Part shown: in pieces, positions 4,585 through 15,917 of the stretch
How positions within the stretch are numbered: the first letter of the stretch is position 1
Layout: every line of letters begins with the position of its first letter
Source: Candidatus Micrarchaeia archaeon
GTDB taxonomy: Archaea > Micrarchaeota > Micrarchaeia > Anstonellales > J096
Assembly: GCA_041500865.1 (NCBI GenBank)
Contig: JBGQMY010000014.1
Span: 1-30,941 of the forward strand
Direction: 5' to 3'
DNA length: 30,941 nucleotides
Position numbers and translations under genes: made by a program
Notes under the pieces: model-generated
Seen by the model: the letters and a program-made list of their open reading frames with translations, nothing else
What the model was told of the DNA's origin: nothing
Databases searched by the model: none

Positions 4585-4734
4585 ATGGATGGAAGAGGAA
4601 GGCCTTTTGGCGAAAGAAAGATGTATCCCGCGAAATGCTCCGACTGCGGAGCGGAATGCGAGGTCCCTTTCGAGCCAAAGCAGGACAGGCCGGTGTATTG
4701 CAGGGAATGCTTCAAGAAGCACAGGAAATTCTGA
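4585..4734 (+). CDS. CxxC-x17-CxxC small zinc-ribbon protein (49 aa), copy 1
   Basis: Manual translation MDGRGRPFGERKMYPAKCSDCGAECEVPFEPKQDRPVYCRECFKKHRKF; GGTG SD-like motif upstream. Not in the ORF track. Confidence 0.92.
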   Translation: MDGRGRPFGERKMYPAKCSDCGAECEVPFEPKQDRPVYCRECFKKHRKF

Positions 4735-4910
4735 TCCTGGTTGGATTGGGGTTTTTGGGGTTTCGAAATTCGGTCGTTTTTTAACAATTCCCTAGCTTGT
4801 TTTTAAATGGTCAGAAGATAGTCGCATTGCATCAATCATTGTGGTCCTTAATGCTGAATATTGGTGTATGAAAATAGAAAGGATTATTAACGGAGAGGTT
4901 GAAACCTGCT

Positions 4911-8707: not shown

Positions 8708-8854
8708 ATGAAAGGATTTGGAGGATTCGGCGACAGGAAGATGTACCCAGCAAAGTGCTCCGACTGCGGAGTGGATTGCGAAGTGCCCTTTGAGCCGAAA
8801 GAAGGCAGGCCCGTTTATTGCAGGGACTGCTACAGGAAGCACAGCAAGTTCTAA
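8708..8854 (+). CDS. CxxC-x17-CxxC small zinc-ribbon protein (48 aa), copy 2
   Basis: Manual translation MKGFGGFGDRKMYPAKCSDCGVDCEVPFEPKEGRPVYCRDCYRKHSKF. Not in the ORF track. Confidence 0.92.
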   Translation: MKGFGGFGDRKMYPAKCSDCGVDCEVPFEPKEGRPVYCRDCYRKHSKF

Positions 8855-8922
8855 TAGCTACTGATAGCTAATGGATGAGTAGTGCAATTTTTTTTCTTAT
8901 TTCAATGGTCCAGCCGTAAGGC

Positions 8923-9909: not shown

Positions 9910-10926
9910 TCAGCTGTGCGGGTACCTGCTCGCTTCCCGCACGCAGCTTTCGCGGGATACGTTGTCCAGCAGCTTGTTGCAGTATGAAACGTCGGAAAGG
10001 GTGAGGCCGAGGCACTGGTCGAGCAGCTGGTCGTCAGTGAGCTGGCGGCACACCGTGTCGTTGCCGTGGGATATCGCATATCCCTGGATGCAGAGCTCCG
10101 TTTTCCGCTCCTTGCTTTCCAAAAAGCAGGTGTCGTCGCATTGCATATTAAGGCATTCGCGCCAGTCGCCGAGGATGTCGGCGCGGCAGAGAGTCTGGTC
10201 CAGCGCGCGGTAGCGCTTTGCGCAAAGCGAGGCGTCATTCGAATTAAGCGCAAAATCCCCGATGCAGGAGTCGTATATCCACAGGCCGTCGGAAAAATAG
10301 TTGTATAGCGCATGGCATATCTCGGTGTCGTTGTTTGCCATTGCCAGGTCGCGTACGCAGGCAACAAGGGACGATGCGTTAGGCGCATCTGTTGAGGCGT
10401 ATAATCCATCTTCTGGAAGGAACTGGGAGCAGTTCTGCCCAACCAGGCCAAGCGTTTTTTCAGAGGCGGAAGTGTATGGTATCGTGGATATGTTGGATTT
10501 GGCAACGATGGCGCCGCGGCTGCCTGTTATGACAACAAGCAGCATTGTGTATTTGCCGGGCTGGAACCCATGGTATTGATGGGCGCCGGATTCATAGGCT
10601 GGACCGCTGCCAGGCGCATATGCGGTGAAATTCTCGTTCAGCGGCACTATCACCGTGCCATTCTTTGACAAAAGCATGAATCCGTATGACGTTCCTGGCG
10701 GCAGGCCTTTTTGCACAGGAGAAAACCAGTCGCCTGTGTATATCGCGGATATCTGCGCGCCGTTCTTGTCCACGGCATAAACGCCATATGCGGGATTGAG
10801 GGACTCGGAAACCGTGACATTGAGCGGCTCAGGCACTTGCTGGCTTTCCAGCAAGTCGCAGCAGCCGGCAAAAGCCAGGAAAAGCGCCGCAACAAAAGCT
10901 ATTGCCGGTAGTTTGCCTTTTTGCAT
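9910..10926 (-). CDS. Lipoprotein with C-terminal Cys-rich helical repeats
   Basis: MQKGKLPAIAFVAALFLAFAGCC lipobox from ATG 10926; repeated C-x(7-9)-D-xx-[ILVY]-C units in the C-terminal half. Confidence 0.75.
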   Translation of the reverse strand: MQKGKLPAIAFVAALFLAFAGCCDLLESQQVPEPLNVTVSESLNPAYGVYAVDKNGAQISAIYTGDWFSPVQKGLPPGTSYGFMLLSKNGTVIVPLNENFTAYAPGSGPAYESGAHQYHGFQPGKYTMLLVVITGSRGAIVAKSNISTIPYTSASEKTLGLVGQNCSQFLPEDGLYASTDAPNASSLVACVRDLAMANNDTEICHALYNYFSDGLWIYDSCIGDFALNSNDASLCAKRYRALDQTLCRADILGDWRECLNMQCDDTCFLESKERKTELCIQGYAISHGNDTVCRQLTDDQLLDQCLGLTLSDVSYCNKLLDNVSRESCVREASRYPHS

Positions 10927-11007
10927 GTAGTAATGTTGTGCGGGCAATTTAATAAATGGCGCCCTCTGCAAGGTTTTTATAGGCTTTCGTAGCCAAAGGT
11001 AGATTGC

Positions 11008-11184
11008 GCCGGGGTGGCGGAGCGGTCAACGCGCCAGACTCGAGGCGGAAGGACAGGACGCAGTTTTGCGTCATAACCCCAGGCGGGGGTTGAGCCTTAA
11101 GGGGGCGTGCTAAGGCATGGAGCCCCCTTAGGTGGGACATCTGGTGCCCGCAAGGGCGCAGGGGTTCGAATCCCTTCCCCGGCG
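11008..11184 (+). tRNA. tRNA-Ser(CGA) with a 94-nt intron at canonical position 37/38 (11045-11138)
   Basis: Acceptor stem gccgggg/ccccggc with G73; anticodon arm ccaga-ct-CGA-g^a-tctgg; long variable arm gcccgcaagggc; T-loop ttcgaat. The intron end tggg pairs with C32-G35, forming a relaxed BHB/BHL motif. Confidence 0.93.
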
Positions 11185-11219
11185 CATTATTCTTATTTTT
11201 TTATTATATATCTACTTCT

Positions 11220-12080
11220 TCAATATTCCATAGGTACAAATTTTGTTCTTGTGTTTTGGGATAACTCACTTTTTATTATATCCAGAGTATCTTTAGCTCT
11301 GTCAACACGATGGCGAATTGTATCCAGGCTTATTTCTTGTTTTGCTTTTTCACTTGATATCGAATGGAATATTCCCTTAATGTACCTGGTTCCACTTAAG
11401 CGCTTTGTTCCATCTTCTAATATTTGATAGTACTTTTGTATATTATTCTCTGTTTTCTGGATTTCTTTCTCCATTATTGAAAGTTGGTAATTATATTCCT
11501 GAACAGCTTCATTGTATTGCTCCCCGCTTTCACGGATTTCCTTTTCTTTCGCCTCGATCTTATCCCTAGTTTGTTTAAATGCAGTTTTAGAAGCATATTC
11601 AGGGTATTGCTTGAGGTAGTCCATCATCGAATCAAAATGCATTTCTTCCACGTCAGATTCATTAATTTTCTGCCTGATATTGACTGTCTTGACTTTATTC
11701 CGTTTAGTTGTTTTATCCCACATTGCAGATTCAAAATTCGTTTCTTTGTTTAATAGATTTTCCAGGGATGAGAATAATGTGCGCCTCTCATCTTCATTTT
11801 TTATTACATTATTTTTTGATTTCTGTGCATTATTGTACGTATCATTGAGGATTTTGCTTTCTTGCTCTAATCCATATATGGATTTTACTATGGTAACATT
11901 TGTGTTATCTAATTCCGTTTGATATCTATTTCTCAAAAAGATGGCGTCATTTCTACCCGTTATATCTCCTATGATACTTCCATGCTTAATTTGCGGAGTC
12001 TGATCATATTGAAGAGAGTTGTTCCCCATTAGAACATCGCTAGCATCCGACCTATTATATTGTTTCCTTCTATCTTCCAT
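11220..12080 (-). CDS. Soluble LemA-like coiled-coil protein (AT-rich gene)
   Basis: QYPEYASKTAFKQTRDKIEAKEKEIRESGEQYNEAVQEYN resembles the LemA YPxLxAxxxFxxLxxEL...YNxAVxxYN signature; no TM helix. Start at ATG 12080 after the SD-like GAGGTGG. Confidence 0.6.
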   Translation of the reverse strand: MEDRRKQYNRSDASDVLMGNNSLQYDQTPQIKHGSIIGDITGRNDAIFLRNRYQTELDNTNVTIVKSIYGLEQESKILNDTYNNAQKSKNNVIKNEDERRTLFSSLENLLNKETNFESAMWDKTTKRNKVKTVNIRQKINESDVEEMHFDSMMDYLKQYPEYASKTAFKQTRDKIEAKEKEIRESGEQYNEAVQEYNYQLSIMEKEIQKTENNIQKYYQILEDGTKRLSGTRYIKGIFHSISSEKAKQEISLDTIRHRVDRAKDTLDIIKSELSQNTRTKFVPMEY

Positions 12081-12090
12081 AGTTTCCACC

Positions 12091-12270
12091 TCATTTGAAA
12101 TATTCATTTTCTCTTAAATTCTTTGGTTTAATATCAACTTCAAAATACTGTATCATCTTCTTTATTGCTTCTTGTTTGGTTTTCATATGGTTTGATAATT
12201 TATACACATCCACAATAGTATTTTCTTCTTCCGTCAAATCTATTTGCACTTTTACCAAATCTAACACCAT
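12091..12270 (-). CDS. Small ribbon-helix-helix-like DNA-binding protein (DUF2683-like), 59 aa
   Basis: Manual translation MVLDLVKVQIDLTEEENTIVDVYKLSNHMKTKQEAIKKMIQYFEVDIKPKNLRENEYFK: alternating beta strand followed by two helices. TATA TTTATAAA at about 12297-12304. Not in the ORF track. Confidence 0.65.
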   Translation of the reverse strand: MVLDLVKVQIDLTEEENTIVDVYKLSNHMKTKQEAIKKMIQYFEVDIKPKNLRENEYFK

Positions 12271-12377
12271 GATATACTATAATATATGGCAATATATTTA
12301 TAAAAGTATCGTTTTTGAGCATATCAACCGTCGCAAGCGCGCCGTAAAACCACCTAAATCTAACTGTTTGTACATCG

Positions 12378-12393
12378 CCCTTCTCCGGCGCAT
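12378..12393 (+). repeat. att-like direct repeat of the tRNA-Ser 3' end (copy 2)
   Basis: cccttctccggcgcat versus cccttccccggcgcat at 11172-11187 (15/16 identical), close to the right edge of the AT-rich block. Confidence 0.85.
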
Positions 12394-12407
12394 ATATCAG
12401 TTTCCTG

Positions 12408-13472
12408 TCAGCCAGGGCAGCCCTGGTCATTTGTCCCGGCCAATTTTGTTGTCCCGCTGCAGTCGCCGTCAGGGCCGGAATAATCCCAAGAATATTGGGT
12501 ATTGAAGGTAGAACAATCAGCGCTGAACACCACGTCATAAGCGGACAATGTTGAGGTTCCCGACCCGTCGGGGACAGTCCTGCCATCTATGTGCAGCGTG
12601 GTGCCAATGTATGTCCCGGTGACAGGCCCATGGCCAATGTCGCCCATTATCCCATTTGTAGCATTGCGCTGTATGGTTATGTCATAATTGTTGGTGAAGC
12701 CCACCCCATGGCATGCGCTGTCATCCTCCGTAACGGTAACGTGCCAATTTGCGACAGATATGTCTGATTTTACAGGAAGGCCGGTATCGGCGCATGCGCC
12801 TGACCCGCCGAGGTCCGCGATGCACACCGTTATCGGATAAGTGTCCGGATTGGCGCCTTCAGGCACTGTTCCTGAAAGCAGGCCGTTCATGTCCATAGTT
12901 AATCCAAGGGGCTGGCCCGAAACCGTGAACGTATAGGGCGGGTCCTGGTCCTGGGCGTTTGTGACGTCCATGCAGTTCACCCCGCTCGGCTGGCTGCAGA
13001 AGTTGTATTGGTAATCAGTTCCGATTGTGGCAGTGTCTATGGTTGCAGGCGGGGTAAAGCTGACCTTTGGCTTGTTCACCACAAGCGAGAGGCTGAAAGG
13101 CCCGCCAACCGTGCCATTTGAGTCCCTGACGATGAATGAAATCGGGAACATCTGCATTGAGGTTCCAGGGTTTAACGTTGGCGCTGCGCCTGTTATTGAA
13201 CAGCCTGGCTCGCTGAAAACCAATGTCCCTGGAAGGGTGGTGCCTGGCGCAGCCCGGCAATCATACGGCGGAGACCCGCCTGAAACCGTTATCGCCGCGC
13301 TGTATGGATGGCCTGAGGTTGCGCCGGGGATTGCCGTGGACGCGCCAATGCTGACAGAGGTGTTGATTGTGATTCCGTTGCTGGTAATGCTTTTTGTAGC
13401 CGGGGCATTGGAAGTGCATCCAGCCAACAATATCGATACAGCCAAAACAGCGAAAATCAGGTTTCTGCCCAT
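12408..13472 (-). CDS. Lipoprotein with putative Ig-like (He_PIG-type) domains
   Basis: Lipobox LLAGC; SGGSPPY and PPYTFTVSGQPLGLTMDMNGLLSGT...YPITV motifs. Confidence 0.75.
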   Translation of the reverse strand: MGRNLIFAVLAVSILLAGCTSNAPATKSITSNGITINTSVSIGASTAIPGATSGHPYSAAITVSGGSPPYDCRAAPGTTLPGTLVFSEPGCSITGAAPTLNPGTSMQMFPISFIVRDSNGTVGGPFSLSLVVNKPKVSFTPPATIDTATIGTDYQYNFCSQPSGVNCMDVTNAQDQDPPYTFTVSGQPLGLTMDMNGLLSGTVPEGANPDTYPITVCIADLGGSGACADTGLPVKSDISVANWHVTVTEDDSACHGVGFTNNYDITIQRNATNGIMGDIGHGPVTGTYIGTTLHIDGRTVPDGSGTSTLSAYDVVFSADCSTFNTQYSWDYSGPDGDCSGTTKLAGTNDQGCPG

Positions 13473-13522
13473 GCGGTCATCTCAATGAAAACGTTTTTAT
13501 AGTTTTTTGGTATGGTTTTTGC

Positions 13523-13547
13523 CGAATCCGGATGGGGCCCGGCGCAT
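13523..13547 (+). repeat. att-like degenerate repeat of the tRNA-Ser 3' end (copy 3)
   Basis: cgaatcc 13523-13529 matches 11167-11173, and cccggcgcat 13538-13547 matches 11178-11187. Confidence 0.65.
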
Positions 13548-13608
13548 AAATGTTTAAATAAATGGATAAACATGCTTATTTAAAAATAATTGTGGATAAT
13601 GACTGCAT

Positions 13609-14490
13609 ATGGCAGAACTAAAGGATGCTTCCAAGGGAACAAGGGCTCCTGGCGCAGATGCAGGAACAACGATAAGGAGGGCAAAAGACGCAATTGAGAG
13701 CGCAAAAATAAGTTCTGCGGTATATGTTTTTCGCGCAGGGAACTGCCAAGATTTACATTCGACCATTTTCGCCATGGATGCTACGAAAAGGGGGTTTGTG
13801 CAGACAGTTTCCTGCATCCCTGAAAATCCCGATATGCAGATACTTAGGGACTGCTGCGAAGGGGGCAGGATTATAGAGGAGATGAAACGCACGCTGTCGA
13901 AATGGAGCTCCTACGCCTCAATCGGCGGGGTTGCGCAATATTCACTGAAGAAAAGGGCGCCAGTATTTACATCTAAACTTGCGCCTGCCGGCGTTTTGGG
14001 GAAATTCGATATTGAGTTCAGGCCCGCAAGCCTTGTGGAGGCATATGCGGATTTAGACAATTACGGGGAACAGGTCATTCTGAAAACCTGGGCAGAGGCA
14101 GGCGAAAGGGAGAAAAGGACTGGCACAAAAATAAAGGCATTGGGCGAAGAGTTCCTTTATGCAGGGCCACTGAGGATGGCCGGTTTCCATTTCACGACAA
14201 GGGTGTTCCAAGGCGGATTCCCTGACGACATCAGCCAGGCCATAGAAGAAGTCAATGGAAATGCGCCGAAAGGCGAACTGATTGTGCACCAGGCATACTA
14301 CTTCTTCCATGCAGACAATGGAAGAATCATGTATTCCGCTTTCCGCAAGCCGGAGGATTATTGCGCGGGCAAGACCAAGCTCTTTGGGGACATAACGATA
14401 AGCGATGGCAAGCTGACGTTCTTCCAGAACGGGAACAAGGAAAATGCAAAGGATTTCAGCGGCCTCCTGATGGGGGAACGGGTAGATTAA
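13609..14490 (+). CDS. Hypothetical protein
   Basis: 293-aa ORF after TTTAAAAA; its stop abuts the next ATG; no recognisable motif. Confidence 0.65.
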   Translation: MAELKDASKGTRAPGADAGTTIRRAKDAIESAKISSAVYVFRAGNCQDLHSTIFAMDATKRGFVQTVSCIPENPDMQILRDCCEGGRIIEEMKRTLSKWSSYASIGGVAQYSLKKRAPVFTSKLAPAGVLGKFDIEFRPASLVEAYADLDNYGEQVILKTWAEAGEREKRTGTKIKALGEEFLYAGPLRMAGFHFTTRVFQGGFPDDISQAIEEVNGNAPKGELIVHQAYYFFHADNGRIMYSAFRKPEDYCAGKTKLFGDITISDGKLTFFQNGNKENAKDFSGLLMGERVD

Positions 14491-15159
14491 ATGGCAAACA
14501 AGCTGGCAAGGCTGGAAAAATCTGCTAAGCCACGGATGAACCTTGGCAGCAAAAAGCCTGCTCCGGAAAAGACATACCTAAGGTTTGACCCAAGGGAGGT
14601 TGTGCGCGACGTCTTTGAGGAAAAGGTCAGCAAACTGTTCAACCTGGAATGGGCGGACGTGAGGGCGCTGGGCCATGTCCCTGACCTCGTCTCAAAGGAC
14701 AGGACGTTCTTCGTTGAGGTCAAGGCCGCCGCATACGACAACGGCGGGGTCATAAACATGGGGCAGCTGCGCAGGTTCGACCGGGAGATAATGGCAAGGC
14801 GGTTTTACGCGTTCCCGTACCACTCGGTAAACAGGGGGCAGGCGCACCGGTTTCCTACAGAGGAGGCGCTGGGGGACGCGCTGGGCCTCAGGTCGCTGTA
14901 CCTGTTCCCGTTCAGCATAGTGAAGGCGCATTTTGAGAAATCGTGGAAGATACGCAACCCAAAGCACGACGACTACGTACAGATGAGGGAATCATTGGCA
15001 AACAGGATTTTTGAAAAGGATGCCGAAGCATGGAAAAGGCTTGGCCTTGACCCAAACCGATACAGGGCCGTGTCACCGCATGAAAAGGCCCACATAATGA
15101 CAAGGGACGGACAGCTGGAGCAGCAGCTGCTGGATTCCTTTCATCCTGAAGATATTTAG
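14491..15159 (+). CDS. PD-(D/E)XK-superfamily nuclease (restriction-endonuclease-like)
   Basis: FEE...GHVPDLVSKDRTFFVEVK catalytic motif. Confidence 0.7.
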   Translation: MANKLARLEKSAKPRMNLGSKKPAPEKTYLRFDPREVVRDVFEEKVSKLFNLEWADVRALGHVPDLVSKDRTFFVEVKAAAYDNGGVINMGQLRRFDREIMARRFYAFPYHSVNRGQAHRFPTEEALGDALGLRSLYLFPFSIVKAHFEKSWKIRNPKHDDYVQMRESLANRIFEKDAEAWKRLGLDPNRYRAVSPHEKAHIMTRDGQLEQQLLDSFHPEDI

Positions 15160-15357
15160 GCGGCCTGGCATATTTCCATCTGTCAAAAATCCGAATCTAT
15201 TGTCTTAGGTGACTACAAATTGTATCCGCGTAGTCACCTCTTCCGGAATACTTTTTTTAGACGTGCTGGACAAGAAACCCGGGGTTTTAACCCGGGAATG
15301 ACTTGACTCATCACTTTAAAGATGAGTATATTACGGGTGGGGAAAGTCTGTATTAGA

Positions 15358-15594
15358 TCATATACTCTCAAGCAGGGCAATGAACTGCTCCCTGTCAATG
15401 CCCAAATCCTTGCGGATTATCTTGTTCAGCAATCCTGGGTCTATCTTTTCCCTGGTATGGCATGGCACCACGGTCGTCCTGCCGTCAGGATGCCTAAAGA
15501 ACATATGGCTCCCTTTCTGGCGCTTAAGCTCAAACCCCATTTTATTAAGAACCTTTGCAAGTCGGATTACTGAAATCAGGGGCAATTTTGCCAT
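15358..15594 (-). CDS. hicA: HicA-family mRNA interferase toxin
   Basis: GFELKRQKGSHMFFRHPDGRTTVVPCH...GLLNKIIRKD. Confidence 0.93.
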   Translation of the reverse strand: MAKLPLISVIRLAKVLNKMGFELKRQKGSHMFFRHPDGRTTVVPCHTREKIDPGLLNKIIRKDLGIDREQFIALLESI

Positions 15595-15680
15595 GTTTGC
15601 TTAATTGATTTGGAGTTTAAAAATACTAGGGTATAATCAATTTAATGATATATGCAAGGCATTCTGTTCCCTGCGCACGT

Positions 15681-15917
15681 TTAACATGTTAATGCAGATA
15701 TCTTAGGCATAGATATTTTCTCTATCCCTATTATCGGCCTTGCCATTATCCCGGATTCGCACTCGTAATAAAGCTCAATGGCTTCCCGTATCCTTTTCAG
15801 AAGCCCGGCCTTTGTCCTGGCCTGCGTATGGCATCCCGGAAGCTCAAGTATTTCTCCTATAAGGTATCCGCTTTCGCCTTTTTCTATTACAAGAGTAAGA
15901 GTCTTGAGCCGCGCCAT
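15681..15917 (-). CDS. hicB: Short HicB-family antitoxin lacking a DNA-binding domain
   Basis: LVIEKGESGYLIGEILELPGCHTQARTKAGLLKRIREAIELY. Confidence 0.9.
   Translation of the reverse strand: MARLKTLTLVIEKGESGYLIGEILELPGCHTQARTKAGLLKRIREAIELYYECESGIMARPIIGIEKISMPKISALTC

Follow-up and report, generated by a model that had tools for sequence, protein, structure and literature searches.

An additive genomic island of integrase-free cassettes behind a tRNA-Ser gene in a Candidatus Micrarchaeia archaeon, probably built by the integrases of visiting elements

Introduction

Insertion by a tyrosine integrase at a tRNA gene leaves direct repeats flanking the insert, and repeated use of the site produces arrays (PMC6563490). 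Additive flexible genomic islands at tRNA genes have been described in Alteromonas (PMC4898812), and here we report an island of the same kind in a Candidatus Micrarchaeia genome, on a stretch of 30,941 nucleotides (contig JBGQMY010000014.1; the whole analysed stretch is hereafter called the window) in which small gene cassettes without an integrase follow a tRNA-Ser(CGA) gene and are separated by copies of its 3' end. Compared with the Alteromonas islands as presented in PMC4898812, this island stands apart in being archaeal, in the size of its cassettes (0.7-3 kb, with one or few genes) and in its host family, where we found no tyrosine recombinase.

The tycheposon islands of Prochlorococcus likewise arise by successive integrations at one tRNA, with older insertions pushed outward, partial tRNA copies in between and remnants left behind; as outlined in the preprint (bioRxiv 10.1101/2020.12.28.424599), tycheposons carry integrases and leave integrase fragments, whereas none were found in the cassettes studied here. 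The cryptic integrated elements (CIEs) of Thaumarchaeota (PMC6563490) and the SNJ2, pNOB8 and SSV types (PMC8371274, PMC5861418) share short att cores at tRNAs (8-14 bp reported) and tandem reuse of the site, and an SNJ2-type integrase supplied from a plasmid is described as able to excise an integrase-deleted provirus (PMC5861418). CIEs, as delimited in PMC6563490, are defined by their integrase and measure 2.6 kb or more, whereas the cassettes here have no integrase. In Escherichia coli, tRNA-linked repeats (TLRs) are short units closed by an 18-19-nt copy of the upstream tRNA 3' end (PMC8144298), and they resemble the 35-150-nt spacers reported below; the short spacers at other tRNAs fit the definition of a TLR. 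Unlike our 1.2-kb gene cassettes, TLRs appear in PMC8144298 as non-coding units without gene cargo.

A preliminary description of this DNA, made from the sequence alone, proposed an integron-like gene-capture system with tRNA ends as its sites. Integrons, reportedly including archaeal ones, are alike in outcome, with ordered accretion of small cassettes and the newest at the anchor. In the strict sense the likeness fails, as no intI was found, the cassette ends at this tRNA share no site or attC-type hairpin (no attC model was run), the cassettes have upstream regions of their own in either orientation, and the site is a tRNA end. Nor does the locus contain the Cas1 casposase and PolB inside terminal inverted repeats by which casposons are defined. 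In the literature searched, which leaves out most subscription journals, we found no paper on integrase-linked genomic islands at tRNAs in Micrarchaeota and nothing on integrase-free archaeal cassettes. The island is built in a known way; what is unusual is the size of the cassettes, the lack of a host recombinase and the inverted arms retained by two cassettes of relatives.

Duplicated tRNA-Ser 3' ends in the window

The window belongs to contig C14 of genome G000 (1.04 Mb, 92% complete) and was compared with two relatives of the same genus (G001 and G002), with a related locus, L047, whose deoxyhypusine synthase is 99% identical to that of the window, and with the host family (f1) of 19 genomes (G000-G018). 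The 3' end of its tRNA-Ser gene recurs further downstream (Table 1). The preliminary description listed three recurrences, which fared differently against an intergenic background of 1650 tiles of G000 scored against the tRNA-Ser tail. Copy 2 stands: matching at 15 of 16 positions, it tops all 1650 tiles and, apart from the tRNA, is the only match with at most one mismatch in the genome, a uniqueness that refutes chance as its origin. Copy 3 is probably a decayed tail copy, its 10-mer (13538-13547) occurring twice in the genome when both strands are searched (at the tRNA and here) and 12 of the tiles scoring equally; at the homologous place a decayed copy is present in G001 (by eye about 14/18, one gap) and a much weaker one in L047. 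The candidate fourth copy (15667-15677) is equalled by 472 tiles and sits between hicB and hicA; it was rejected as a cassette joint because its score is at chance level and it separates these two genes. As originally described, the copies are all intergenic and on the tRNA strand, and cassette 1 is AT-rich, with 33% GC against 54% for the Ig cassette. The putative TATA boxes of the individual modules were made out by eye.

The intron of the tRNA-Ser gene (window 11046-11139) differs in length among relatives (94, 83, 49 and 45 nt), and about 40 nt of the L047 intron have matches at five scattered sites in G000.

Table 1. Features of the tRNA-Ser array and its surroundings (window coordinates).
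Feature	Position	Strand	Evidence and remarks
tRNA-Ser(CGA) with 94-nt intron, array anchor	11008..11185	+	ARAGORN with introns allowed; Rfam RF00005, 40.7 bits
tRNA 3' end (tRNA positions 61-76), duplicated attachment core	11172..11187	+	L047 homology stops at 11187
Cassette 1, 1190 bp, 33% GC, no integrase	11188..12377		Other cassettes take its place in L047 and G001, none in G002
LemA-like protein, 295 aa from first start (database form 286 aa)	11220..12107	-	Pfam PF04011, E 5e-6
59-aa small protein, probable RHH-type regulator (inferred)	12091..12270	-	In 10/13 loci, LemA homologues adjoin a gene with 60-75% identity to it
Copy 2, displaced tRNA 3'-end copy, 15/16, attR-like, cassette-swap breakpoint	12378..12393	+	
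Ig-domain lipoprotein-like gene, older cassette, 54% GC	12408..13472	-	PF05345 (He_PIG), E 9e-10; common to L047 and G001
Copy 3, probable decayed tRNA 3'-end copy	13523..13547	+	10-mer 13538-13547 plus 7-mer 13523-13529
hyp293, 293-aa protein of unassigned family	13609..14490	+	In L047 and G001; absent at the G002 locus
222-aa PD-(D/E)XK-like nuclease	14491..15159	+	Visible PD...EVK motif; Atlas feature matches 0.93-0.94 to restriction-endonuclease-like/PDDEXK clusters
60-nt dispersed repeat, outside the tRNA array	15254..15312		9 other copies in the genome
hicA	15358..15594	-	Pfam HicA, E 2e-18
hicB	15681..15917	-	Weak: UPF0150, 0.017; PHROG HicB-like, 7e-4

The locus in related genomes

Homology between L047 and the window ends at position 11187 and resumes at 12406. 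The order in L047 is tRNA, a 727-bp cassette (26% GC, with a single gene, for a membrane protein), an 18-nt tail copy without mismatch, a 1364-bp cassette (44% GC, HD-domain gene), a decayed copy at the position homologous to copy 2, and the Ig gene. In G001 the tRNA is followed by arsR and arsE-like genes, and a second contig carries arsG, a permease gene, a 12/13 tail copy, the Ig gene, an additional gene of 547 aa, a decayed copy corresponding in position to copy 3, and then hyp293 and the nuclease. G002 has the nuclease directly behind the tRNA, with no cassette and no tail copy, and its Ig-domain gene was not found. Logan contigs from four runs, which are short and patchy, provided two informative joints from relatives matched at 85% likeness, one between the tRNA and the nuclease (11187 to 14587) and one between the Ig gene and the nuclease.

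Four lineages have four different contents at one fixed tRNA 3' end, the variability between relatives by which genomic islands are recognised, and in three of them three different cassettes, each closed by a tail copy, precede the same boundary. An age gradient runs outward from the tRNA: GC content goes from 33% to 54% in the window and from 26% through 44% to host-like values in L047, and the copies decay in the same direction. This comparison, which the preliminary description had named as a test, supports its core, namely that small cassettes without an integrase were inserted one after another at the tRNA 3' end and that the newest is nearest; the support comes from the L047 breakpoints, the three swapped cassettes and the agreement of GC content and copy decay with the expected age order; gene content and order differ between relatives, and the breaks fall at the repeats. 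No reordering was seen, the order Ig gene, hyp293, nuclease being the same in the three genomes that have all three. The upstream side is also variable, since a 353-aa gene located there (9910-10971) and present in L047 is absent from G001 and G002.

Search for a recombinase in the host

In keeping with what had been noted for the array, no integrase was found in the window or in G000, a genome whose 92% completeness leaves absence unproven, and no integrase gene or fragment was found inside an element in the window, the genome or the family. The stand-alone XerA- or SSV-type integrase that the preliminary description suggested looking for did not appear: tyrosine recombinases (PF00589), and hence a XerA-like gene, were found in 0 of the 19 family genomes, PF00589 matched 10 of 22 other genomes of the order, and a query with an SSV-type integrase matched none of the 19. 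A query with an integrase of the class gave only short weak matches in 3/19. Searches were also negative for PF16795 (one genome), for serine resolvases (PF00239; three genomes) and for Cas1 (PF01867; the three genus genomes), and the cassettes hold no casposase or PolB genes. On these four Pfam families and two protein queries, a resident recombinase in G000 was rejected.

tRNA-targeting integrases and LemA loci elsewhere in the class

The LemA-like protein gave no match in the 17 other family genomes searched, and homologues of it occur in 12 of 400 other genomes of the class, none of them in the family; in 10 of the 13 LemA loci the gene of the 59-aa protein is adjacent. Eight of the 13 lie within 5.6 kb downstream of a tRNA, and among these eight, four are closed by a tail copy, three run into contig ends and three have a tyrosine integrase next to the tRNA. 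The regulator-LemA pair faces away from the tRNA in the integrase-bearing loci and toward it in the window and in four integrase-free loci. Two integrase-free LemA islands at different tRNAs (Arg in L149, Thr in L150) have a common sequence of about 30 nt right after the tRNA, possibly a shared arm.

One integrase-bearing element, in genome G271, spans 9.2 kb and combines an integrase (PF00589, E 5e-20) with a 13-nt tail copy. Its integrase family is present in 137 of 401 genomes of the class and in none of the 18 of the host family, and 28 of its 30 best loci begin 22-335 nt past a tRNA of the same orientation, with ten amino-acid types as called. Integrases with a matching site geometry are thereby shown to exist in the class. 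Tail copies of 11-13 nt with inverted arms were found in the integrase elements of G271, G064 and G342. Nine of 13 integrase regions were examined for tail copies (two are cut by contig ends), and six of the nine have a copy at a score of at least 11, some perhaps by chance over 20 kb; one opposite-strand match was also obtained. Behind an integrase element in G064 lies a segment of 0.9 kb that has no integrase and is bounded by a copy on either side; here a stack of the same kind has kept its enzyme.

Members of this integrase family (L161-L190) have a C-terminal zinc ribbon and have diversified over many tRNAs, and at several of them another T-loop-like motif follows 15-25 nt after the end of the tRNA. 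The locus L189/L194 was considered as a Ser(CGA)-targeting integrase locus and rejected: its tRNA is called Ser(CGA), but the 3' end is Leu-like. In L125, from another DPANN group, about 1.4 kb separates a homologue of the window's nuclease from a member of the family.

Inverted arms and cassette ends

Inverted repeats around the core are clear in three of 12 elements tested, the G271 integrase element and the integrase-free cassettes of L047 and G001 (p 0.002 each), and the G064 and G342 integrase elements have inverted arms too (p 0.003). All five armed elements carry ACG at +17 to +19 after tRNA position 73, where ACGC is found at 0 of the 44 tRNAs of G000. Beyond the tRNA tail, the Ser cassettes share no end motif in 66 pairwise tests per end; pairs at p<0.02 numbered two at the 5' end (the orthologous Ig gene and two distant LemA islands) and one, weak, at the 3' end.

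Tail copies at other tRNA genes

The scan downstream of all tRNAs that the preliminary description had called for revealed tail copies well beyond tRNA-Ser. Counting matches to a tRNA's own tail on the same strand within 6 kb downstream (E<0.01), 11 of the 44 tRNAs of G000 have a copy (10 independently, one being a neighbour's copy), against 0/44 upstream and 0/44 on the opposite strand. With a looser cut-off and a distance of 1.5 kb, the counts are 9 of 31 tRNAs in G001 and 5 of 32 in G002 (30/42 and 30/43 tRNA loci, plus the Ser loci), with none upstream and two and none, respectively, on the opposite strand. Ends of protein genes, taken from a crude set of open reading frames (ORFs), are not enriched (30 of 1002 with copies downstream, 25 upstream and 21 in an interior control), and a general duplication of gene ends was rejected on this ground. 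The right ends of the copies are fixed at tRNA positions 73-78 and the left ends vary between 51 and 63 (by eye).

Copies enclosing genes in G000 are those of Ser(CGA), Thr(GGT) and, below the threshold, Leu(CAG). The cassette behind tRNA-Thr(GGT) on contig C7 measures 728 bp and carries a Cys-rich 177-aa gene, and that behind tRNA-Leu(CAG) on C9 measures 560 bp and carries a 111-aa lipoprotein-like gene; a 1398-bp cassette with two ORFs lies behind tRNA-Asp in G001 (L099). All three are free of integrase and closed by a tail copy.

Non-coding hairpin spacers of 35-150 nt closed by the local tRNA tail occur in G000, G001 and G002 and form at least three families (by eye). In G000 they follow Leu-TAA (C3), Asp-GTC (C5) and Gly-GCC (C16), as well as Arg-TCG, Lys-CTT, Lys-TTT, Arg-TCT, Gln-TTG, Gln-CTG, Glu-TTC and Gly-CCC. 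One spacer body bears Arg, Lys or Ile tails, a Glu spacer of G001 contains a Gly tail, and in the Leu/Asp/Gly family the spacer start is complementary to the tail. An abundant family of AT-rich palindromic repeats also begins directly after many tRNA ends in the three genomes (e.g., window 28458 onward).

Genes and repeats of the window

The gene identities first proposed hold for the LemA-like, Ig-like and hicA genes (Pfam) and, by motif and Atlas match, for the nuclease, whose homologues occur in other DPANN groups; hicB is weakly supported, and the 59-aa protein gave no family match above the cut-off, which leaves its RHH label without family confirmation. No family or Atlas match was obtained for hyp293. 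The hicAB genes, formerly counted with the cassettes, are missing at this place in L047, G002 and G001 and are a separate insertion; their treatment as a tRNA cassette was rejected because no copy bounds them and they adjoin the unrelated 60-nt dispersed repeat. Several copies of that repeat lie at contig ends and one is about 1 kb from the genome's only TnpB-family gene (C2); by resemblance, we take it to be possibly an IS200/IS605-type end. Window positions 8725-8855 and 4606-4735 cross-match L047 positions homologous to each other, which suggests a dispersed repeat of about 130 nt.

Discussion

The locus is in our judgement quite probably an additive tRNA-anchored genomic island built by the integrases of visiting elements, and not an integron. 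A DNA circle that carries a short tail copy of tRNA-Ser (roughly positions 61-76) would recombine into the tRNA gene; the tRNA would be re-formed, and the former tail would move outward together with all the DNA behind it. Each further event would place another cassette directly at the tRNA, so that the stack is youngest there. The enzyme would most likely be a tyrosine integrase of the tRNA-3'-targeting family of the class, supplied by a visiting element because the host family encodes no tyrosine recombinase, and we infer that integrases of the G271 type made these joints.

Several observations weigh against this reading. The opposite orientation of the regulator-LemA pair implies that cassette 1 is not a simple trimmed copy of the integrase-bearing elements. 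No integrase aimed at this tRNA-Ser was found, and viral contigs yielded neither the tRNA-end pattern nor a match to the LemA and integrase queries. Most tail copies in G000 enclose merely 35-120-nt non-coding spacers, whose presence at many different tRNAs is not explained by one site-specific integrase. The arm motif was recognised post hoc from five examples, and no inverted arms flank the two cassettes of the window itself (p 0.99 and 0.82), which therefore look locked in. At the level of individual joints, the G001 cassette is spread over two unjoined contigs (C103 and C73), and hyp293 adjoins the nuclease without a tail copy, yet G002 and one Logan contig lack it. The metagenome scan gave a single locus. 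The contigs of the four runs showed no within-species polymorphism, near-identical pieces being found without a swap, and no cassette circle joint was listed among the assembled contigs.

Alternative origins account for parts of the same evidence. An integron-like system, in which a stand-alone recombinase resident in the host would capture cassettes and shuffle them with tRNA tails as its sites, would fit the newest-nearest order, the single transcription unit per cassette, the swaps at the joints and the many tRNAs of the genus with tail copies downstream and none upstream; it is decidedly unlikely given the negative searches for PF00589, PF16795, SSV-type integrases, resolvases and Cas1, the short weak matches of the class integrase query, the lack of a common end motif among the Ser cassettes and the absence of reordering. 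Homology-facilitated illegitimate recombination is a known mechanism by which DNA could be captured additively with no integrase at all, the incoming molecule being anchored at the tRNA by homology and joined at microhomology near the T-arm; alternatively, the process behind short tRNA-linked repeats could be at work. The fixed right and variable left ends of the copies, the many different tRNAs used, the same spacer body with different tRNA tails and the lack of a host recombinase all suit such capture, as do the E. coli TLRs, described as copying 18-19 nt of an upstream tRNA or rRNA end (PMC8144298). We nevertheless regard it as unlikely, since the inverted arms of two integrase-free cassettes match those of integrase elements, the genes of cassette 1 come from tRNA-integrating elements and protein-gene ends are not enriched for copies.

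Insertion by a Cas1 or casposase-type enzyme that duplicates its target site at the tRNA end is very improbable. It would agree with the presence at many tRNAs of copies 14-16 nt long and with terminal inverted repeats in three of 12 elements, and the T-loop motif is indicated as a feature recognised by casposases (PMC6614799); however, the A. boonei duplication reported there starts 8 bp past the T-loop motif, whereas the copies here start at or just after the T-loop, at positions 51-63, Cas1 is absent from the three genus genomes, and one of the three armed elements encodes a tyrosine integrase. Chance matches in a variable region, which do explain copy 4 and would be a modest coincidence for copy 3, have next to no probability as an account of the whole, given a copy 2 that is unique in the genome, the counts of 11 against 0 and 0 among 44 tRNAs, and the perfect copy and swaps in relatives.

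If the island was indeed built by visiting integrases, its cassettes may have been small non-autonomous circles on arrival, or they may be the one or two genes that trimming has left of larger elements, with about even support for each. For small circles mobilised in trans speaks the very young 727-bp cassette of L047, with its perfect core, both arms and no relic of an integrase, as does the described action of SNJ2-type integrases on elements deleted for the integrase (PMC5861418); for trimming, internal deletion likewise keeps both ends, and the genes of cassette 1 occur in larger elements. A more far-reaching possibility, which we put forward tentatively and with the odds leaning against it, is a pool of minimal non-autonomous cassettes (a gene or operon between inverted integrase arms) that tyrosine integrases brought in by viruses or plasmids excise and re-insert at tRNA 3' ends, the host family having no such enzyme of its own. 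This would amount to integron-like capture with a borrowed enzyme, and the 35-150-nt hairpin spacers would be its smallest members.

For the biology of these organisms, the island means that single genes and operons are gained and exchanged at a fixed, safe site by a streamlined DPANN archaeon in which no site-specific recombinase is detectable, the gained cargo including arsenic resistance, surface proteins and nucleases. Parts that can be tested are the 727-bp cassette, which has both arms and an intact core, and the widespread, tRNA-diversified integrase family. Some island-finding tools need an integrase; if mobilisation in trans is true, such tools would miss a whole class of cassettes.

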